From: Candidatus Doudnabacteria bacterium
GTDB taxonomy: Bacteria > Patescibacteriota > Doudnabacteria > UBA920 > O2-02-FULL-48-8
DNA: 64,000 nucleotides
Reading direction: 5' to 3'
NCBI GenBank assembly: GCA_016199215.1
Contig: JACQHB010000006.1
Coordinates: 3,642 to 67,641 of the forward strand
Both the position numbers and the translations under genes were made by a program. The first letter of the stretch is position 1, and each line of letters begins with the position of its first letter. This document shows positions 2,377-19,910 of this stretch, one piece after another. A model generated the notes under the pieces. That model saw only the letters and a list, made by a program, of their open reading frames with translations. It had not been told where the DNA came from and searched no databases.

Positions 2377-3861
2377 CTAATTGCTCTGGACTGACCGCGC
2401 GACTCGATGCAGATGATCCCAATATATCACGTTTTTGACCACGACTGGAAAAGCTCTAAGGTTACCAGAGGTCTTGATCAGGAGCTTCCAATAGCGCCAA
2501 TTGGCCCCAGACCAGATCCCGATAAACCAAAGGCTCTTCACCACCGCGAGCAGCTCGTTCCACGATAAGTGAGTGCTTCGCGTTTTGGGCCGGTAGTTCT
2601 TGATCAGCGTCTCAATCCTTGCGAAATAACTCTTGGCGGAAAACAGCGCCAAAAGCAGTTCGCGGTGGCCCTTGACCAGCTTCTCAAGCCCCATTGTCGG
2701 TAAGAAATTTACCTGACCCGACGTGTTGTCGCCGTTTGCTTCAAGCAACAACCGTCCTTCCGCGCGCAGTCTATGCCACAGCCTGGTCCCGGGAATTGCC
2801 ATAACTATCCCGACCATTGCCATAGGCACGCCAATTGCCTGGATGAACTCAAACTGGTCGCGGAAGATGGTTTCGGCTTTGTCATTGTCGAAACCGACCA
2901 TGAACCCGCCCATCACATGCAACCCGCGCCGCTGAATCTTGATCACCGCCTCTCGCAGATCGCGGCTCGTGTTCTGGGTCTTGCCGGCTTCCTTCAGGCT
3001 GTCCATACATGGGGTCTCCAGTCCGAGGAAAACGTCGCCGAAGTTGGCAAGGCTCATAAGTCCCAATAGTTCGTCATCATCCGCCAGATTCACGCTGGCT
3101 TCGGTGAAAAACTTGAATGGGTATCGATGGCGCTTCTGCCATGCGACCAGCTCAACCAACATCTGCTTGACAGCGCGCTTGTTGCCAATGAAGTTGTCAT
3201 CAACAACAAACACCGCTCCCCGATAGCCCAAGTCGAACAGCAACTGCAGCTCTGCCATCATCTGGCGAGGAGTTTTGACGCGCGGCACGCGGCCGTTCAT
3301 GACCGTGATGTCGCAGAACTCGCAGTCATACGGACAACCGCGAGAATACTGCACGAGCATGGTGGCGTAGTCCTTCAACCGGATCAGCGCCCACATTGGA
3401 AGCGGCGTTGCGGTAATATCCGGCCGAAGGCCAGACGAATACTTATGCTTCGCGCTTCCGCTTGCCAAATCTTCCAAAAACAGCGGTAGCGTTACTTCTG
3501 CCTCGCCCAGGACCAAGTGGTCAACTTCGGGAAACTTTTCCGGCTCAGCGTTGAACAGCGGACCTCCGGCAACGACCGTTTTACCGAAAGCCTTACAGCG
3601 TTCAATTACAGCGAGAGCTGACGACTTCTGCACAATCATGGCGCTTACAAACACCATATCCGCCCACGCAAGCTGGCTATCGGTAATCGGCGCGACGTTC
3701 TCGTCGGCAAGCTTCTTGGCCCACTCCGTGGGCAATATCGAAGCGATCGTGAGCAAGCCCAGGGGTGGAAAAGCCGCCTTCCTCGATATATATCTCAGCG
3801 CGCCGCTGAAACTCCAAAATGTCGTCGTCGGGTATTTGGGGTATATCAAAAGAACATTCAT
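2377..3861 (-). CDS. B12-binding-domain radical SAM protein
   Basis: 494 aa with radical SAM CxxxCxxC (RGCPYDCEFC) preceded by an N-terminal Rossmann-like B12-binding segment. SD is GAGGAGG, 7 nt before the ATG. Visibly GC-richer than neighbours. Confidence 0.85.
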   Translation of the reverse strand: MNVLLIYPKYPTTTFWSFSGALRYISRKAAFPPLGLLTIASILPTEWAKKLADENVAPITDSQLAWADMVFVSAMIVQKSSALAVIERCKAFGKTVVAGGPLFNAEPEKFPEVDHLVLGEAEVTLPLFLEDLASGSAKHKYSSGLRPDITATPLPMWALIRLKDYATMLVQYSRGCPYDCEFCDITVMNGRVPRVKTPRQMMAELQLLFDLGYRGAVFVVDDNFIGNKRAVKQMLVELVAWQKRHRYPFKFFTEASVNLADDDELLGLMSLANFGDVFLGLETPCMDSLKEAGKTQNTSRDLREAVIKIQRRGLHVMGGFMVGFDNDKAETIFRDQFEFIQAIGVPMAMVGIVMAIPGTRLWHRLRAEGRLLLEANGDNTSGQVNFLPTMGLEKLVKGHRELLLALFSAKSYFARIETLIKNYRPKTRSTHLSWNELLAVVKSLWFIGIWSGANWRYWKLLIKTSGNLRAFPVVVKNVIYWDHLHRVARSVQSN

Positions 3862-3971
3862 CTGATTCTCCTCCTCTTTGTTCTCTCCAGTTCTTTTACT
3901 TTATACTCCCGTTTTCCTCTTGTCTAGAAAAAACAGCCTTTTTACGGCTGACTTAAATTAATAACTTATTC

Positions 3972-3999
3972 TTATTCGCTTATTCGTACGAATTAGACC
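3972..3999 (-). repeat. junction repeat copy A (TTATTCGCTTATTCGTACGAATTAGACC on plus strand)
   Basis: Lies between the TspO stop and the hairpin terminator (3934-3956) preceding the radical SAM gene. Core palindrome is ATTCGTACGAAT. The same word recurs at 4609-4629 and 4746-4758. Confidence 0.85.
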
Positions 4000-4013
4000 A
4001 GGTATTAATTCGA

Positions 4014-4556
4014 TTAGCGATTGAGAATCCAAACAGAATAATTCAAATACGCGGCAAAAGTGACCCAAAAAATGTATGGAATCAAAAGTGCGGCTGAAAC
4101 TTTAGATACGCGGTAAAAGTTGATGATTGTGTAAAGTATCGCAAACCAGAGCGCGACGAGTTCAAAAAAAGCCAGACCAATTTGGTGGCGGCCAAAAAAT
4201 ATGTATGACCAGAGCGCGTTCAGGACCAATTGAATGACAAAGATCGCAATCAGGTTTTGCTTCTGCCAATCCCCTGTCCAAAGTTTTCCGGACCATTTAT
4301 TCCAGGCTTTCTTTTTGGGAACCAAAAACTTATTCCTTACTTTCCATTTATTCTTCCAAACGAGGAAAATCGAAATACCCATAAGGATGTAAAGTGCTGT
4401 CCAAACAGGACCAAAAAGCCAAGCAGGAGGATTAAGACTAGGTTTGGTAAGAGCGACATACCAGCCAGGGATGGCTTCTGCTGTATACAAACTTCCTACC
4501 GCGCCAACGGACAGGCAGATAAGCACAAACAGAACCAAAATTAGTATTTGTTTCAT
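4014..4556 (-). CDS. tspO: TspO/MBR family tryptophan-rich sensory protein
   Basis: 180 aa, multi-TM and Trp-rich. The WYVALTKPSLNPPAWLFGPVWTALYILMG signature is characteristic of TspO. Confidence 0.85.
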   Translation of the reverse strand: MKQILILVLFVLICLSVGAVGSLYTAEAIPGWYVALTKPSLNPPAWLFGPVWTALYILMGISIFLVWKNKWKVRNKFLVPKKKAWNKWSGKLWTGDWQKQNLIAIFVIQLVLNALWSYIFFGRHQIGLAFFELVALWFAILYTIINFYRVSKVSAALLIPYIFWVTFAAYLNYSVWILNR

Positions 4557-4608
4557 ATAGTTTCGTCTTCATTTCATTTTATCACAAGCTAAACAAGGAC
4601 CAAAGTGC

Positions 4609-4629
4609 TTATTCGCTTATTCGTACGAA
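4609..4629 (-). repeat. junction repeat copy B1 (left half through the palindrome: TTATTCGCTTATTCGTACGAA)
   Basis: Identical to the first 21 nt of copy A. It stops inside the TTCGTACGAA palindrome, where the arsR fragment begins. Confidence 0.8.
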
Positions 4630-4748
4630 GTCGAACGAAAAGATAACCTGATCTCTTCAGCGATATTGCCAACTGATGCTCCCCTTTTTTGCTTAAGCAC
4701 TTTGATAATCGCAAGCCTTCTTCGATTTGCTAAAGCTTTCAAAGTTAC
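4617..4748 (-). pseudogene. truncated arsR-family paralogue (43 codons, no start, premature stop inside the repeat)
   Basis: My minus-strand translation is VTLKALANRRRLAIIKVLKQKRGASVGNIAEEIRLSFRSTSYE*. It matches residues ~8-49 of the intact ArsR at 5787-6047 at about 28 of 42 positions. It lacks the N-terminus and the whole C-terminal half. Confidence 0.7.
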
Positions 4749-4758
4749 GAATTAGACC
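4746..4758 (-). repeat. junction repeat copy B2 (right half: TACGAATTAGACC)
   Basis: Identical to the last 13 nt of copy A. B1 and B2 share the hexamer TACGAA, so the arsR fragment sits inside a split repeat. Confidence 0.75.
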
Positions 4759-4770
4759 TTGAGCAAAGCC

Positions 4771-5067
4771 TTACCAAATCTGGTAAATCTCGCGCCTTCC
4801 GGTCATGTACATATCAGTATAGTGCTCCCACTGCTTGGCGACTTCCGGATCCACGTCCTGATCCATCTTGCCGGATTTGTAGTCTTCCATCATTTTGTCG
4901 AAATCAGCAAGACTGTCCATCTCGCTTTCTACAACGACAGTATTGTAATTACCGGTCAGGTCTGTCATAACCCTGCTTTTCCCCTTCATAAACGAGCCCT
5001 TCATTATCTTGGCAAACTTGGACGCCATGCCAGGCTTGCAAGTAAATATCTCACGAACTATTATCAT
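4771..5067 (-). CDS. small hypothetical protein (98 aa), possibly dimeric alpha/beta-barrel-like
   Basis: Intact ORF with SD TAGGAGG 4 nt upstream. No motif that I can name with confidence. Confidence 0.5.
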   Translation of the reverse strand: MIIVREIFTCKPGMASKFAKIMKGSFMKGKSRVMTDLTGNYNTVVVESEMDSLADFDKMMEDYKSGKMDQDVDPEVAKQWEHYTDMYMTGRREIYQIW

Positions 5068-5207
5068 AAACCTCCTAAGATTGTTTAATTAGACTAATCT
5101 TAAGAAGTAAAAAAAATTAACTCAATTGTAAACAAAAACGAAAGAGCTTCCACTGTTTTGATTTGACTGAAAACGACGTTTCGTCAACGGCGGGTTTGGA
5201 TTAAATT

Positions 5208-5762
5208 CTATAAAACTCCAAAACTTATCAGTTTACTTTTCAAAGAATCAAAATCTTTCCAAACGATCCCTTGCATTCCCACCTCTTCAGCTCCTTTTAC
5301 ATTCTGCTGGGTATCATCAATAAAAATGCATCCCTGAGGAGAAACTTGAAGTTTTTGGCAGGCAAGATGATATATATTTGGCGCCGGCTTCTCAAGCTTC
5401 ACTTCTGACGAGTTTATAAAGATTTCGAAAAATTGCGAAAAAGGATATTGCTTTTTGAAGTAAGGAATAGTAATGCTCGTGCCGTTATTAACTACGGCTA
5501 ACTTATACTTCTGTCCAAGCCCAGGCAGGAGCTCTTGCCAGACTTCCTCCACCTGGCAAAATTTCCCCGTAACTCTTTCGGCGATTTCTTGAACACTAAA
5601 ATTTTTAGTGATTTCATTTTGCTTCAGAGCATGAATGAAGTCATATGGATCCAGGATCCTATCACTTAACTCTTCCGCGATTTGGATTACTTCGTCAAAC
5701 TTATAATTTGGCCGTTTCTTAAGCAATGGCCCGACCATGTCAAAAATTATTGCCTTAATCAT
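5208..5762 (-). CDS. HAD-superfamily hydrolase-like protein
   Basis: N-terminal IIFDMVGPLL (HAD motif I with the second Asp replaced by Val) and C-terminal IFIDDTQQNVKGAEEVGM (motif IV). Confidence 0.7.
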   Translation of the reverse strand: MIKAIIFDMVGPLLKKRPNYKFDEVIQIAEELSDRILDPYDFIHALKQNEITKNFSVQEIAERVTGKFCQVEEVWQELLPGLGQKYKLAVVNNGTSITIPYFKKQYPFSQFFEIFINSSEVKLEKPAPNIYHLACQKLQVSPQGCIFIDDTQQNVKGAEEVGMQGIVWKDFDSLKSKLISFGVL

Positions 5763-5772
5763 AAACTACTCT

Positions 5773-5793
5773 CCTATTCGCGCGAATTAGAGA
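5773..5793 (-). repeat. junction repeat copy C (CCTATTCGCGCGAATTAGAGA)
   Basis: Contains the ArsR stop codon (minus-strand CTC TAA) and ends 10 nt before the HAD ATG. Core palindrome is ATTCGCGCGAAT. Confidence 0.85.
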
Positions 5794-6047
5794 TCGCTGA
5801 GAAGTGATTTCACAAACTGGGGTAGGTCTAATGCTAAGTAATAAAAAACAACCAGACTCCTTTGCTCTTTATCAAGCAAGTTTGCCCTGGCCAGAATATT
5901 CAGATGCTTGGAGGTTGCCTTAAACGACAATCTGATCTGTCCCGCAATTTCGCCCACCGAGGCTTCTTTCCGAGTCCTCAGAAATTTAATAATCGCCAAG
6001 CGCCGCCGGTTAGCCAAAGCCTTCAAAATTATTTCCTGCTGTTTCAT
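5787..6047 (-). CDS. ArsR/SmtB-family winged-helix transcriptional regulator
   Basis: 86 aa. LKALANRRRLAIIKFL...SVGEIAGQIRLSFKATSKHLNILARANLL is the classic ArsR HTH. TATAAT (6054-6059, minus) ends 6 nt before the ATG. Confidence 0.85.
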   Translation of the reverse strand: MKQQEIILKALANRRRLAIIKFLRTRKEASVGEIAGQIRLSFKATSKHLNILARANLLDKEQRSLVVFYYLALDLPQFVKSLLSDL

Positions 6048-6062
6048 AAAACCATTATACTA

Positions 6063-6096
6063 TTATTCGCCTATTCGCGCGAATTAGAGAAGGTTA
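6063..6096 (-). repeat. junction repeat copy D (TTATTCGCCTATTCGCGCGAATTAGAGAAGGTTA)
   Basis: 34 nt, 33/34 identical to copy E. It contains the HIT stop codon (minus-strand AAC CTT CTC TAA) and is followed directly by the arsR -10 box. Confidence 0.9.
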
Positions 6097-6542
6097 TGCT
6101 TTTTGATTTTATCGGCAAGTTGATTTAGCTCTTCAAGATTTTTTTGAGGACCAAGTTGCGTGGAAATATATCCTTCGTATTTCTCAAAATACACTTTCTC
6201 TTTCGCCCAAATTTCTTCGAATTTCTCATCGATCCCATATAAAGGATAAAGCTTTATATGGGCATGATTAATCCCCATCCCCTCCATGACCATAGACACT
6301 CGTTTTACGTTCAATCCTTTTTCTAACAAACCAGCAACTTTTCTAGCGGCTAAAAATGAATCCGTATAATCCTGATCAGAGAAATCAAACATGTACGAAT
6401 CAAAGTGTTTTTTGGTCAAAACCAAAGTCATTCCCTCGACATTTGGGTTAATATCAAGGATAGCCAAGAAATTTTCATCTTCCCAGATCTTTGCGGAATC
6501 AATCTCCCCACTGACAATTTTGCAAAATATACAGTCTTTCAT
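6084..6542 (-). CDS. HIT-family nucleotide hydrolase/transferase
   Basis: 152 aa with N-terminal CIFCKI and the histidine triad INHAHIKLYP. Confidence 0.85.
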   Translation of the reverse strand: MKDCIFCKIVSGEIDSAKIWEDENFLAILDINPNVEGMTLVLTKKHFDSYMFDFSDQDYTDSFLAARKVAGLLEKGLNVKRVSMVMEGMGINHAHIKLYPLYGIDEKFEEIWAKEKVYFEKYEGYISTQLGPQKNLEELNQLADKIKKHNLL

Positions 6543-6802
6543 AATTTTACTACAGGAGTTAATGCTTTTATAAGTTTTAATTTCTCAACTCGGGATAATT
6601 GCTTGATTCGGTATTCGGCCTTGGAAGCACTGGACCTGTTGCGGAATCTTTGGGTGAAAACCAACTTCACCGGCCTTCGGGCCTGCGTATATCTTGCTCC
6701 CAGCTTGGAAAGATTATGCTCCGAGACCCTGCGAGGCAAATCCGTCGTGATCCCAGTATAAAGCGTCTTATCCGAGCATTTGAGGATATAAAGATGGTAC
6801 AT
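6539..6802 (-). CDS. GIY-YIG nuclease-domain protein (UPF0213-like)
   Basis: 87 aa. YHLYILKCSDKTLYTGITTDLPRRVSEHN is the GIY-YIG signature. It overlaps the HIT start by 4 nt. Confidence 0.85.
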   Translation of the reverse strand: MYHLYILKCSDKTLYTGITTDLPRRVSEHNLSKLGARYTQARRPVKLVFTQRFRNRSSASKAEYRIKQLSRVEKLKLIKALTPVVKL

Positions 6803-6803
6803 G

Positions 6804-6837
6804 TTATTCGCCTATTCGAGCGAATTAGAGAAGGTTA
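6804..6837 (-). repeat. junction repeat copy E (TTATTCGCCTATTCGAGCGAATTAGAGAAGGTTA)
   Basis: Abuts the GIY-YIG ATG. It retains the minus-strand AACCTTCTCTAA that forms the last codons of the HIT gene at copy D, although no ORF precedes it here. Confidence 0.9.
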
Positions 6838-6838
6838 A

Positions 6839-6943
6839 CGGCTCATTGAGGGGTTTCGTTGAGCCGTTGGACAGGCATTATTTCCCGTTCACTGGATTCC
6901 CGATCGGGTCGGGAATGACAGAAGAATATGCTTTAATAATGCC
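6839..6943. other. non-coding segment with nested hairpins at the end of the repeat array
   Basis: Three pairings are visible: CGGCTCA(6839-6845)/TGAGCCG(6860-6866); GGCATTAT(6874-6881)/ATAATGCC(6936-6943), which encloses TTCCCGA(6897-6903)/TCGGGAA(6909-6915). No ORF. Confidence 0.4.
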
Positions 6944-7080
6944 ACAGGAAAGGGAAAAAGTAAAAATAGGGGGCAGGGTTGAGGGTGAAGGGACATGATT
7001 CTTTATATTAGGATTATTTTGGGTTATACTAAAAGCACCATCAGTCACCACTTCTCGTTACTCGTTTCAGGAGGATTGTC

Positions 7081-7294
7081 ATGCCTCGTTTCAAGGTCAA
7101 GGACGGCCAGTTCGTGAAGTCCAGCTACAGTCACCCGGGCGGCATCGTCACCAGATGTGTGTCGGTGGCCATCACCCGCAAGGGAGTCGCGGTCCGCGAC
7201 ACGAAGGACCCGTCCAAGAAGGACCCAATGGTACACGCGTGCCGAGTGGGATGCCTTCATCAAGGGCGTGAAGAACGGCGAGTTCGATCTCTGA
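7081..7294 (+). pseudogene. DUF397-domain gene with a frameshift
   Basis: Frame 1 gives MPRFKVKDGQFVKSSYSHPGG..CVSVA..KGVAVRDTKDPSKKDP. The +1 frame from 7232 gives YTRAEWDAFIKGVKNGEFDL* (stop at 7292-7294). Together they form a complete DUF397 pattern. The frame break lies around 7222-7232. GC-rich, with SD CAGGAGG. Confidence 0.6.
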
Positions 7295-7307
7295 GACGGA
7301 CCGCGGT

Positions 7308-7350
7308 GAGCACCAGGGCGGCATTCTGCCGTCCCTGGTGCTCATTTTAT
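7308..7350. terminator. hairpin terminator between the DUF397 gene and tfoX-like gene
   Basis: GAGCACCAGGG(7308-7318)/CCCTGGTGCTC(7333-7343), followed by ATTTTAT. Confidence 0.7.
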
Positions 7351-7355
7351 ATGTT

Positions 7356-7658
7356 TTAATAAATTACCGCTAACGAAAGCCTTGCCCACTCTTTTAGCTT
7401 TACTAAATCATCAATGATCTCCGGGGGGACTTCGTAATAGTTTTTTAAAATCTGCTTTGGGCTTGGGGCGAAGGGTTTACTGCCAAAGGCTTCGTAATCC
7501 TTTCTTGTTTGCTCGTTTGTTTTGAAAAACAGCTGGTCTTGGTAGATTATCGCAAAAAACTTTCCGTCCAAATATAAGCCGTAGGCGTCGAACATGCGGC
7601 GGCCCTTGATGTTAAGACTTGAAAGTTGCTCAAGAATGTAAGACTCAAAAGAAGACAT
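7356..7658 (-). CDS. TfoX N-terminal-domain protein
   Basis: 100 aa. The RRMFDAYGLYLDGKFFAIIYQDQLFFKT pattern is typical of TfoX_N. Confidence 0.65.
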   Translation of the reverse strand: MSSFESYILEQLSSLNIKGRRMFDAYGLYLDGKFFAIIYQDQLFFKTNEQTRKDYEAFGSKPFAPSPKQILKNYYEVPPEIIDDLVKLKEWARLSLAVIY

Positions 7659-10145: not shown

Positions 10146-10630
10146 ACCACCTCCACTGGCATCCTGATCCGCTCAAGGGTGACTTGCTTCCGTTTCCCGC
10201 CAACATCGATCTTGACGCTGTGCCCCTCCTCCTTGCCGATAAACGGCTGGATAAGAGGGGCCAAATAGCTGATCACGGGGGGGCTTGCAGTTGGCTCAGA
10301 ATCTTCGAACCCGCCAACCAGATACTCTCTCAGCTCGCCCTCGATACTCACCAGGGCCATATGCCCGATCCGCAGCTTGTCAGTGCTTTCAGGCGGCTGA
10401 TCGATCACCACCATCTGCCCGATTTTCCGATTGACCTCGGCAATCTGGGCATTGATCATATCCTCGTCGCGCATGAGCTGCTCGAACGTGAAGTTGTCGT
10501 GCCAGACGTTGCCGCCGACTTCCGCGGCTTCGCCCTTCTGGCCCTGAGTCGCCTTCAGCTTATCCATAAGGTCGAGCTTCCGTCGATAGATCCTATCCGC
10601 GCCCTTGCGGGTAAAATACAGCTTTGACAC
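10142..10630 (-). CDS. GreA/GreB-family (Rnk-like) protein
   Basis: Start placed at GTG 10628-10630, 6 nt after AGGAGG. The sequence FTRKGADRIYRRKLDLMDKLK...GNVWHDNFTFEQL...KLRIGHMALV resembles a Gre-factor C-terminal-domain protein. It overlaps the downstream kinase-like gene by 4 nt. Confidence 0.55.
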   Translation of the reverse strand: MSKLYFTRKGADRIYRRKLDLMDKLKATQGQKGEAAEVGGNVWHDNFTFEQLMRDEDMINAQIAEVNRKIGQMVVIDQPPESTDKLRIGHMALVSIEGELREYLVGGFEDSEPTASPPVISYLAPLIQPFIGKEEGHSVKIDVGGKRKQVTLERIRMPVEVV

Positions 10631-17366: not shown

Positions 17367-19910
17367 CTAAAAAGTTCTTTCAGTACTAATTGGCCCAGTA
17401 ACAGCCGGCGCTCCGAGTCTGGTGCGATCCAAAATCTCCCGCTCAACATCTTTTTTCGGCCTGCCAAATTTGAGCCTGGACAAATTGCGCACGATCCCTG
17501 CCAGTTCCAAACTGCCCCCGGGAGGCTTGGGATAAGTCTGCATATTAAACGGCCTCGAGGCTGTTCCTTTCACCATAAGCTTCACATAAGCGTTGTACCG
17601 CTCGATATTCACCAAATCAAATTCATTAAACACCGGAGCAAATTCTTTGGCCATGATTTCGGCATCCTCAACACCGATCCGGAAGCAGATCATACTGCCG
17701 GCATTGCCGAATACCGCGTCGCGCATCCTTGAGTCCATTGCCGAACTGCCTTCTTTTTCCACGCTTAGCTGGGACAAAAACTGGTGGGCCATGATCAGGT
17801 TTAGCCGGTACTTTCTTGCCTCGGACAAAATCGTGGCAAAACTGTCAGTGACAAAATTCTGGAACTCATCCACATACAGGTAGAAGTCGCGGCGGTTTTC
17901 TTCCGGAATGTCGGAGCGGGACAAAGCCGCCATCTGAAGTTTGGAGACTATAATCAGGCCAAGCAGCTTGGCATTGACCTCGCCGGTTTTTCCTTTTGAC
18001 AAATTGATCAGCAGGATTTTGCCCTGATCCATCACCTCCCTGAAATCAAACGAACTTGTCGGCTGGCCGATAATGTTTCTCATCATTTCGTTTTCCACAA
18101 ACCTGCCGACTTTGGAAATCAGGTACCCCAGCATTTCAGATTTGTGAAAGTCCGAAGTTTTGGCCATTTCTTTTTCCCAAAACGAGCGGACAATCGGATC
18201 TTTGACCTTGGACAGCTTGTATTTCTGAAAATCCGTGTCAGTGAACATCCTCGGGATGTCCGCGATCGTGCCGGGATACTGTTTGTCTTCCATCAGTGTA
18301 AGCATGACATTGCGCATATTATGCTCAAACATAGGCCCGATCATTTCCGGCGGAAACAGCTTGTAGAAAATCGCGATCATTTCCTGGATCGCAAAATCTT
18401 TTTGTTCCGGACCCTTGACCTGGAGCATATTTAATCCAACCGGCCGCTCGGTGTCAAACGGCTCAAACAAAATCACGTCGTCGGCCCGCTCTTTGGGAAT
18501 GTATTGCAGAACATCTTCCACAAAATCGCCGTGCGGATCCACGATGCATAACCCTTCGCCGTTGCGGATATCCTGAATCGCCATGTTTTTCATAAGTTCC
18601 GTTTTGCCAGTGCCCGTGCGCCCGATGATGTATTTGTGCCTTCTCCTGTCATCCGCCTGAATGAAAATTTTGGTCTCAACCCCTCGGTAAACGCTTCGAC
18701 CCAATAGCATGCCGGAGTCCGGCAGGGTTGGGGGCGGAGCCGCTTTTTTCGCGTGCAACCATTTAATATTCGGAGTTTCGGTAAATTTGGTCGGCGGATG
18801 CCAGATGCTTGAAAGCTCTTCGGTGTTCAAAATCGCGGAAGTGTTGCGGAAAACCCGAAAAATGTAATCAACGATAATCTTATTAGTTTTCCGTTTAATC
18901 ACGCGCAGGCCGTTGAACGGGGGCATGGAGTACTGCATAAACGACGCCATGATGCTGCGAATATTGGTGTCGGCCGCTTCCTGCGAAGTGCTTGAAGTTA
19001 CAACGCGCAAATTGAATTTGTACCCGGGCCGTGACGCTTTTTCCTCAAACCTCTTTACCATCTCCTGCTGCATGGGAGTTAAGTGTATGGGTTTATACAT
19101 CCCGGAGGGATCGTAGTGCCCCGGCTGCATTTGAGGTTTGTTTTTTTCAAAAAACAATTCGTTGAACGCCATGCCGGTCCACTTGAACAACCCGTTGAAA
19201 AATTTTTCAAGCGGTGATGCCGTTACGAGCCCGGGATTACGGCCCTGCTGGATTTCAAGCGCGTATCTTCTGGGCTTGCTTTGCCAGCCTACTTGAGCCG
19301 GACTGATCAGAAGCTGAATTGCCGCCCCTTCGCCTTGGCCAAGCTTGGAAAGGCTGTTGGTTAAGGAGTTGATCGGATCCGACTCCATATTTTTGTAAGT
19401 GCGCAAGGGAAAAACATATTTTTTTTGCAAAGTTAATTCAGCCGCGGCCACAAAAGATTCGGAAGTAAAAATATTATAAGGCTTCACCTGGTCGATCTGG
19501 GCTTTGGGATATTGCGCGTGAAGCTGTTTTTCGACCAAAGATTGCAGTCTTTTCGGCACATTCAGAAAAAAAGAAATTTTCTTGCCGACCGCGCCCATTT
19601 CCAGGCTTATATAATCATTGATCCCAAAAATGGACTTGACGTTATAATCCTGGGACGCCTGCATGATAGTGGCAAAAAACTGTTCGGCGATGCCAATCAT
19701 TTCTTTTTCCTGTTTTTGCGGATCCTTTTCCGCGTCCGCGTTTTCTTTGGGCACGGAAACTTCCAAAAAAACAGAATCCAGAATTCTGGGGCCCCAGCTC
19801 TTCTTTCTCAGATTTTCCGAAATCAGGAAATACAAAAGCAATCCTGTCAGCCCTAAAATGGCTATTAGGATCAGCCAAAAAACTACAAATGTTCCGTTTA
19901 ACAAGTCCAC
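17367..19910 (-). CDS. membrane-anchored P-loop ATPase, VirD4/TraD coupling-protein-like or HerA-like
   Basis: 847 aa with an N-terminal TM (VVFWLILIAILGLTGLLLYFLI). Walker A is IIGRTGTGKT, followed by CIVDPHGDF. Walker B-like FYLYVDEFQNF. Also ARKYRLNLIMAHQFLSQL. Confidence 0.7.
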   Translation of the reverse strand: MDLLNGTFVVFWLILIAILGLTGLLLYFLISENLRKKSWGPRILDSVFLEVSVPKENADAEKDPQKQEKEMIGIAEQFFATIMQASQDYNVKSIFGINDYISLEMGAVGKKISFFLNVPKRLQSLVEKQLHAQYPKAQIDQVKPYNIFTSESFVAAAELTLQKKYVFPLRTYKNMESDPINSLTNSLSKLGQGEGAAIQLLISPAQVGWQSKPRRYALEIQQGRNPGLVTASPLEKFFNGLFKWTGMAFNELFFEKNKPQMQPGHYDPSGMYKPIHLTPMQQEMVKRFEEKASRPGYKFNLRVVTSSTSQEAADTNIRSIMASFMQYSMPPFNGLRVIKRKTNKIIVDYIFRVFRNTSAILNTEELSSIWHPPTKFTETPNIKWLHAKKAAPPPTLPDSGMLLGRSVYRGVETKIFIQADDRRRHKYIIGRTGTGKTELMKNMAIQDIRNGEGLCIVDPHGDFVEDVLQYIPKERADDVILFEPFDTERPVGLNMLQVKGPEQKDFAIQEMIAIFYKLFPPEMIGPMFEHNMRNVMLTLMEDKQYPGTIADIPRMFTDTDFQKYKLSKVKDPIVRSFWEKEMAKTSDFHKSEMLGYLISKVGRFVENEMMRNIIGQPTSSFDFREVMDQGKILLINLSKGKTGEVNAKLLGLIIVSKLQMAALSRSDIPEENRRDFYLYVDEFQNFVTDSFATILSEARKYRLNLIMAHQFLSQLSVEKEGSSAMDSRMRDAVFGNAGSMICFRIGVEDAEIMAKEFAPVFNEFDLVNIERYNAYVKLMVKGTASRPFNMQTYPKPPGGSLELAGIVRNLSRLKFGRPKKDVEREILDRTRLGAPAVTGPISTERTF

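Follow-up and report, generated by a model that had tools for sequence, protein, structure and literature searches.

The closest described relatives of the system treated here are the ArsR/SmtB repressors, such as SmtB and CzrA or, among the known structures, HlyU and NolR, and a palindromic site beside the gene's own -10 box is typical of autoregulated operons of this kind. In a stretch of 64,000 nucleotides from a Candidatus Doudnabacteria genome (contig JACQHB010000006.1 of assembly GCA_016199215.1, positions 3,642 to 67,641; this whole stretch is called the window in the following), an intact ArsR-family gene, arsR1 (5787-6047, minus strand), is found not far from a 150-bp feature that lies between a gene for a 98-residue protein (4771-5067) and a TspO gene (4014-4556), and that consists of a fragment of another arsR gene (arsR2; 4626-4745, minus strand) with a repeat piece on either side (4608-4629 and 4746-4758). 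It is probable that this feature is the in-place remnant of a second ArsR regulator cassette that has undergone ordinary gene decay, and judged from the arrangement in relatives, the two repeat pieces are best read as the remnants of an upstream and a downstream motif copy, not as one split repeat. With the ArsR/SmtB repressors, the family of arsR1, which is found in the candidate phyla radiation (CPR), shares the fold and the palindrome beside its own -10 box, but its protein has merely 86 residues and lacks the alpha3N and alpha5 metal sites, its motif has, in place of a 12-2-12 repeat, a 5-2-5 palindrome to which one or two direct half-sites are added, and a second motif copy is present at the 3' end of the gene, as also at the 3' end of the TspO gene.

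The arsR1 protein has a winged helix-turn-helix fold with a KATS-type recognition helix and matches the Pfam families HTH_5 (E 4.7e-8) and HTH_20. A protein with 100% identity to it is present in a Candidatus Doudnabacteria metagenome-assembled genome (MAG), it has more than 600 homologues, nearly all of about 86 residues, in Patescibacteria/CPR assemblies, and its closest sequence matches in the PDB are HlyU (E 5e-9), NolR and CzrA. Its 86 residues include no Cys and a single His, that of the KHL in the recognition helix, and the listed homologues are alike in this. Neither the CXC of the alpha3N site nor the D/H-X-H of the alpha5 site is found in arsR1 and the CPR family, and with no Cys and one His, arsR1 is thus no canonical metal sensor.

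For a comparison of loci, arsR homologues were retrieved with their flanking DNA (loci numbered L002 to L225), and a metagenome scan for CTAATTCGNNCGAATARGNGAATA gave at least 120 stretches, of which those listed all appear to be CPR-type contigs. The motif has the general form TCTAATTCG-NN-CGAATAGGCGAATAG and a length of about 30 nucleotides, with the arms ATTCG and CGAAT and a variable central dinucleotide; the consensus of the matches listed is ttcTCTAATTCG-CG-CGAATAGGCGAATAG, and fully symmetric 30-nucleotide versions exist in L102 and L220. Most copies are solitary, with an arsR gene in only about 27 of 120 loci among the matches listed, and they are mostly found in short junctions between co-oriented genes. 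The 86-residue ArsR itself nearly always has the motif on both sides, as is seen in about 30 related CPR contigs. In the approximately 28 arsR genes among the matches listed, the palindrome lies 21-71 nucleotides upstream of the start codon in nearly all, and a second copy lies from -10 to +94 nucleotides relative to the stop codon in most. The geometry is strictly kept in three Doudnabacteria loci (L002, L004, L007) as well as in L211 and in the window, where two copies of cTCTAATTCGCGCGAATAGGAGAATAG flank the arsR gene at exactly 297 nucleotides from each other. The palindrome of the first is at -36 of the ATG, with a TATAAT box after it, and that of the second is at +3 of the stop codon, which this copy overlaps (CTC TAA). 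In the case of arsR1, which has this two-copy architecture with palindromes at -36 and +3, the CG-type copies are located at 6062-6096 (minus strand; palindrome 6073-6084, TATAAT box 6054-6059) and at 5765-5791 (minus strand; palindrome 5776-5787).

The motif also contributes to the genes that it borders. The stop codon of a HIT gene (6084-6086) lies inside the upstream motif and that of arsR1 inside the downstream motif, both reading frames ending with CTC TAA, and the AGGAG of the motif at 5765-5791 is the apparent ribosome-binding site before the start codon of a HAD gene, so that coding ends, stop codons and ribosome-binding sites are built from the repeat. The motif was considered as a core promoter, and this was rejected, as its distance to the -10 box varies from 3 to 45 nucleotides and as one copy, copy A, precedes a terminator. 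Searches of the literature (ArsR, Patescibacteria and operator; CPR regulons; the palindrome string) brought up no description of the motif.

Of the second arsR gene, 40 codons are left (TLKALANRRRLAIIKVLKQKRGASVGNIAEEIRLSFRSTS, as delimited by the column frequencies of the family), and they correspond to residues 7-46 of the 86-residue family, i.e. to helices 1-3 and the first turn of the recognition helix. Its similarity to ArsR/SmtB proteins is clear, since it can be aligned to arsR1 without gaps over residues 6-46 with 28 of 41 residues identical (68%, BLASTP E 9e-18), although by itself it reaches only 19.5 bits with Pfam HTH_20, which is under the 27-bit cutoff. An earlier note on this DNA had described a fragment of 43 codons with about 67% identity to residues ~8-49, of which the identity stands and the extent needs a minor correction. 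When aligned with 120 family members, the typical residues span from T (4743-4745) to S (4626-4628), and the residues just outside the two ends (F, V and Y, E) have a frequency of 0% among the 120 homologues. The ArsR-derived piece is therefore 4626-4745, and both junctions are inside the palindrome TTCGTACGAA, namely in its central TTCG-TA-CGAA, just as the earlier note had placed the breakage and joining in the palindrome core. The similarity is specific for the family and not confined to the generic ArsR helix-turn-helix, a question that had also been raised there: other CPR homologues are 70-79% identical to the fragment, which is above its identity to the neighbouring arsR1.

At the nucleotide level, 77 of 123 positions (63%) are shared with arsR1, and different codons are used for 20 of the 28 conserved residues. 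These mostly synonymous changes indicate an old diverged paralogue and no recent copy of the neighbour, and the parent of the fragment would thus have diverged long ago under protein-level constraint. V35, G41 and N46, each present in at most 3% of the homologues, are rare substitutions at conserved positions and fit a relaxed constraint on the fragment. In 5.8e9 protein clusters, the proteome of the source MAG included, there is no full-length gene that comes near to identity with the fragment, and the only match to its 41 residues in these clusters is P0121 (79%), itself a nonsense-truncated arsR; a donor for an insertion is thus not evident, which fits an old remnant. The fragment is no copy of any other part of the window.

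The fragment cannot form a complete winged helix-turn-helix, as residues 7-46 of 86 are left and the homology stops after LSFRSTS, nor is it an expressible gene, as a Shine-Dalgarno sequence, a promoter-like site and an ATG are all absent. That it has no start, as had been noted before, holds for the most part, there being an in-frame TTG at 4740-4742 that lacks a Shine-Dalgarno sequence and is preceded, three codons before, by an in-frame TAA (4752-4754) derived from the repeat. That its stop is supplied by the repeat holds fully: the frame reads TCG TAC GAA TAA, with the TAA at 4617-4619. This repeat-supplied stop is a natural trait of the family, since the full-length open reading frames (ORFs) of L178 and L196 also end inside the motif, in the frame TCG CTC GAA TAA/TAG and thus in the same frame and at the same stop position as the fragment.

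The two flanking pieces are exact. On the plus strand, CTTATTCGCTTATTCGTACGAA (4608-4629) is followed after 116 nucleotides by TACGAATTAGACC (4746-4758), and the former is found in the window only there and at 3971-3992 (shuffled sequences gave 0.00 matches), the latter only there and at 3987-3999 (shuffle mean 0.01). Both match copy A of the repeat (3971-3999, minus strand), an intact solitary TA-type motif that reads GGTCTAATTCGTACGAATAAGCGAATAAG on the minus strand. The matches to copy A thus are as the earlier note had reported them, with 22 in place of 21 nucleotides for the left one and the last 13 nucleotides of the copy for the right one, and the hexamer TACGAA is indeed present in both pieces (4624-4629 and 4746-4751). 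What had been taken for the left half of a repeat is in fact a nearly complete motif copy, which has kept 22 of 29 motif nucleotides and precedes the TspO start codon by 51 nucleotides; its minus-strand sequence is TTCGTACGAATAAGCGAATAAG, with the full 10-nucleotide palindrome and two additional CGAATA half-sites, and its first four nucleotides (TTCG, 4626-4629) overlap the Thr-Ser codons of the ArsR fragment. The other piece, GGTCTAATTCGTA on the minus strand, is made up of the left flank and the left arm of the palindrome together with its central TA, and directly adjoins ArsR codon 7. The fragment thus has partial motif copies on both sides in the canonical order, its 5' end adjoining the TCTAA-side piece and its 3' end the CGAATAAG-side piece. 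An assembly contig from Logan (L001, SRR12113385) has base for base the same structure in an independent assembly.

In the window, the repeat family has five copies in a single orientation, all confined to 3971-6837, and its 17-mer pattern has 5 matches where 0.27 are expected. Besides copy A and the copies at arsR1 and at the fragment, there is copy E (6803-6837, minus strand), which has AG as central dinucleotide on the plus strand and lies immediately upstream of the start codon (6802) of a GIY-YIG gene; in L004, too, a gene of the GIY-YIG kind is found near arsR. Copy A has the stop codon of TspO on one side and a terminator-like hairpin on the other (3934-3950; the whole arrangement spans 3934-3999), which is a position in the 3' untranslated region and not in a promoter, and by this copy at its 3' end, TspO is, like arsR1, bracketed by motif copies of the same type.

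The centre of the palindrome varies together with the recognition helix of the associated ArsR protein. Among 192 distinct palindromes from the loci collected, the central dinucleotide is CG in 129, CA/TG in 22, AG/CT in 18 and TA in 14 cases. Genes with LSF-K/R-A-TS or TSTS have a CG centre in 21 of 24 cases and genes with K/R-S-TS in none of 8 (Fisher P 1.6e-5 versus the other types), the pairings being KA, RA and TS types with CG, KSTS with CA/TG, and RSTSKHL with TA. Palindromes with TA are associated with LSFRSTSKHL genes in three independent contigs, L127 (three copies), L219 and L220 (three copies), the latter two retrieved specifically as a test of the predicted RS/TA pairing, and three of four RS-type genes are TA-centred (binomial P <=1.5e-3). 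A simpler rule, that S in the helix alone gives a non-CG centre, had to be rejected, as L223 and L225 (TSTS) are CG-centred; it holds for the K/R-S types.

The fragment follows the same pairing: it reads LSFRSTS, and both flanking pieces are TA-centred like copy A and like the copies at L127, L219 and L220, whereas arsR1 with its KATS helix has CG-centred copies. The motif copies of L127 and L220 are almost identical to GGTCTAATTCGTACGAATAAGCGAATAAG of the window, and among genes with known operators the best matches of the fragment are L220 (RS/TA) and L010 (RS/CA), with 79% each. With its RSTS helix and TA-centred flanks, the fragment belongs with these flanks to one matched regulator/operator class, and the two can be regarded as a putative cognate regulator/operator pair. 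By its position at the -10 box, its dyad symmetry and the covariation of its centre with the helix, the motif is most likely the operator of an ArsR dimer.

These data permit a rather detailed, though conditional, description of how the feature may have come about. The ancestral unit would have consisted of the ~30-nucleotide motif beside a -10 box, the 86-residue arsR, and the same motif again at or just past the stop codon, before the next gene, and a second such cassette, of the RSTS/TA-centred class, would have been sited between the gene of the 98-residue protein and TspO. A 5' deletion of about 48 nucleotides, which reached from the middle of the upstream palindrome as far as codon 6, would have taken away the right arm with the extra half-sites and the -10 box, as well as the start codon and the first codons after it, and by a 3' deletion of about 127 nucleotides, codon 46 would have been joined to the left palindrome arm of the downstream copy. 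At this 3' junction, TTCG is common to the Thr-Ser codons (ACT TCG) and to the motif (AAT TCG), as is typical of microhomology joints, and the joint may have been made there by slipped-strand or microhomology-mediated deletion. Both deletions together would have shortened the 297-nucleotide spacing to the 122 nucleotides observed, with the upstream copy reduced to its left arm (4746-4758), the gene to 40 codons from its interior (4626-4745), and the downstream copy near-complete (4608-4629). The deletion sizes presuppose the 297-nucleotide geometry of Doudnabacteria and are inferred, as are the order and the mechanism of the deletions. As every intact Doudnabacteria homologue examined and nearly all other CPR homologues have two motif copies, there is no need for the single split repeat that the earlier note had assumed, and with this two-copy architecture and the canonical order, the pieces are as expected from a decaying cassette.

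The feature resembles known pseudogenes from microhomology deletions, in which the fragment likewise is internal and has no start codon, promoter or 3' end, and it shares with them the TTCG common to gene and repeat and the rare substitutions at conserved positions. It differs from them in that both outer endpoints fall into the centre of a short palindrome, so that the leftovers mimic one split repeat. A second example of a decayed arsR cassette is found in L010 (10001-10260), which belongs to an unrelated CPR genome (JGI samples 3300020074-3300020603; the same sequence in 11 contigs). There, a TAG nonsense codon replaces a conserved Gln after residue 61, while the remaining frame and both CA-type motif copies are intact.

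Several points weigh against a decay in place. In the relatives found, no intact arsR2 is present between the 98-residue protein gene and TspO, so that the ancestral state is inferred and the intact cassette for which the earlier note had suggested a look at related genomes did not turn up. Exact look-ups of the 98-residue and the TspO proteins led to the same organism only (L001), and there is no synteny at the homologues of the former, the best of which has 70%, or at those of TspO, which reach 65% at best and belong to other CPR phyla; a 96-residue protein gene next to TspO in L004, considered as a syntenic counterpart, is unrelated. Two deletions that end in the same ~6-nucleotide palindrome centre are a mild coincidence, which would be explained if the palindrome core is a breakage hot spot, and the leftovers sum up to one repeat with an overlap of 2-6 nucleotides. 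The RS-type genes form a loose clade, for which reason the covariation is partly phylogenetic and reflects few independent events, and the binding of ArsR to the motif is a prediction from position, dyad symmetry and covariation.

The same overlap of 2-6 nucleotides, by which the two pieces rebuild exactly one copy of motif A, would also result from a single insertion. A break in the palindrome centre of one solitary TA-type motif upstream of TspO, possibly caused by a staggered cut at G^TAC, would have been closed with a piece of 116-120 nucleotides of an RS-type arsR, captured as filler during end joining, with duplication of TA or up to TACGAA. One event is more parsimonious than two deletions, and inserts of 25-60 nucleotides that interrupt the core in L007, L131, L137, L152 and L219 indicate that core insertion does occur. 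Those inserts, however, are GC-rich, and several of them fold into hairpins that the arms of the motif close (z -3.6 to -5.2), whereas the fragment with its flanking pieces folds no better than shuffled sequence (z -1.6); a donor gene is missing in the protein database including the source MAG; the cognate RS/TA class and the canonical orientation would have to be due to chance; and two copies are already provided by the canonical architecture. Such an insertion is thus rather unlikely. The TACGAA on both sides also recalls the target-site duplication of a transposable element around an inserted-looking segment, but the segment is colinear ArsR coding sequence and has no terminal inverted repeats and no transposase, and the duplication amounts to 2-6 nucleotides, of which up to four of six (TTCG) may be ArsR Thr-Ser codons.

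Interrupted palindromes in other contigs raise the question of the core itself, as it may be fragile or targeted. GC-rich inserts of 25-60 nucleotides are present inside the ATTCGNNCGAAT palindrome in L131 (minus strand, ~10505-10590), L137 (1538-1612) and L007 (9585-9645), and further ones in L152 (308-370 and 1495-1560) and L219 (1780-1830), in otherwise normal motif copies. Three of the five inserts that were folded are hairpins closed by motif arms, and the inserts may represent either one family of small hairpin elements or palindromes that have expanded. In L102, a partial left half is followed after about 190 nucleotides by a full copy. The idea that the motif is more than an operator, with a core that is a recurrent target of breakage or insertion in CPR bacteria, with motif-bounded genes as exchangeable cassettes and with the split copy as a scar, would agree with the hairpin inserts in the core, the foreign DNA near motif copies and the arsR and other small genes between copies of the same type, but it is a tentative one and unlikely in this full form.

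A still more specific proposal is that the motif is a site of site-specific recombination or integration, with arsR and the small genes as motif-bounded mobile cassettes and the split copy as an aberrant recombination product. The genes in 3971-6837 are delimited by co-oriented copies, TspO and arsR1 each lying between copies of the same type, and the neighbourhoods of arsR differ among CPR genomes while the flanking direct repeats are constant, as would be expected from the integration of circles. Seven copies are found within 3.4 kb in L129, with a duplicated gene-end remnant beside one, and foreign high-GC DNA lies beside copy E. But among the window ORFs of at least 130 residues and the small ORFs around the locus, there is no Pfam domain of a recombinase, integrase, resolvase or transposase. 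The attC sites of integrons are imperfect palindromes of 57-141 nucleotides (R''-L''...L'-R') and dif sites have 11-nucleotide arms with a 6-nucleotide spacer, and the motif, with its ~30 nucleotides, ATTCG-NN-CGAAT and direct half-sites, fits neither of these architectures. The junctions in the window lie in the central six nucleotides, whereas elsewhere the interruptions come after palindrome nucleotides 3, 5, 7 or 8 (a small sample), so that a common cleavage site is not apparent. Furthermore, the motif centre covaries with the ArsR recognition helix, and the motif is absent from the viral contigs of IMG/VR, as a scan revealed, which also leaves a phage origin unsupported. The likeness to integron cassette arrays is that small co-oriented genes of miscellaneous kind (HAD, HIT, GIY-YIG and TspO, with GNAT and glyoxalase in relatives) have a recurring repeat between them, but the window is without an integron integrase, the palindrome is a perfect one of 12 nucleotides, and there is the covariation with the helix. 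Recombination at a specific site is thus very improbable, and of the two kinds of recombination that the earlier note had offered, the illegitimate joining is supported and the site-specific one is not, as the window gave no sign of a recombinase, integrase or transposase. Its view that the repeats are recombination substrates rather than regulatory words is likewise not borne out, because the motif seems to behave in an operator-like manner, with a centre that covaries with the helix type.

It is hardly credible that the fragment has a function of its own, either as a 41-residue peptide that starts with the TTG at 4742 and comprises helices 1-3 (a dominant-negative or anti-repressor form) or as a cis-regulatory RNA of TspO. 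The open frame of 41 codons has been kept without internal stop or frameshift, and it lies directly upstream of TspO. However, there is neither a Shine-Dalgarno sequence nor a promoter, the rare substitutions are at conserved positions, a comparable truncated form is absent among about 130 CPR loci, and besides the lack of a significant predicted fold there is no match in Rfam, where a search with 3800-7000 gave nothing at the gathering threshold or with E <=1, save one chance match to a snoRNA. An assembly artefact, in which reads were joined chimerically at the multi-copy repeat, is next to negligible, for although Logan contigs of related genomes break at the motif (L002, L003, L008, L009), L001 spans the 98-residue protein gene, the fragment, TspO and a radical SAM gene identically, both junctions are internal to the contig, and the fragment copies nothing else in the window.

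With the decay of a second ArsR cassette as the preferred explanation, the surroundings of the locus can be described. The TspO/MBR family gene (4014-4556, minus strand, Pfam PF03073, E 2.3e-47), which is flanked by TA-type copies, has a candidate promoter element in the extended -10-like TGATAAAAT (4576-4584, minus strand), which comes downstream of the motif remnant, as read from the sequence, which a consensus promoter scan did not flag because there is no -35 hexamer. Between copy E and a TfoX_N gene (7356-7658) lies an island with 64% GC (7081-7340, plus strand) in a genome of about 40% GC; it contains a frameshifted DUF397-like ORF (PF04149, E 1.8e-6), DUF397 being a domain typical of actinobacteria, and looks like foreign DNA beside a motif copy. 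Farther away, an ORF of 847 residues (17367-19910, minus strand) has domains like those of type IV secretion coupling proteins (TrwB_AAD_bind, T4SS-DNA_transf), whereupon come two ORFs of about 820 residues without Pfam match.

Also in other genomes the motif can be abundant. The Logan contigs L002, L003, L008 and L009 all begin 43-45 nucleotides upstream of arsR, inside the motif, which must therefore be repetitive enough in those genomes to break short-read assemblies. The seven copies of L129 (1987-5432) separate small ORFs, a tRNA-like sequence and one arsR, two of them form a tandem pair (2058-2160), and attached to the copy at 3100-3180 is a remnant that duplicates the 3' end of a 59-residue ORF (..EAIELVNDL*).

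Taken on its own, the feature is a pseudogene scar, and its main value is that it points to the regulator-motif system around it. If the second cassette has decayed, there is probably no dedicated regulator left for TspO and for any other TA-type sites. A palindrome that is fragile or targeted, as the interrupted motifs may suggest, is a separate and more speculative lead. To our knowledge, transcriptional regulation in CPR bacteria is almost uncharacterised, and with a very small, Cys-free ArsR-type protein that is conserved among CPR phyla and bracketed by a conserved palindrome which also marks other gene junctions, the system appears, by its sequence traits and by analogy, to be an undescribed example of the autoregulated ArsR-type repressor/operator kind. 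The classes KA/CG, KS/CA and RS/TA would then represent a directly testable protein-DNA specificity code in the CPR ArsR family.

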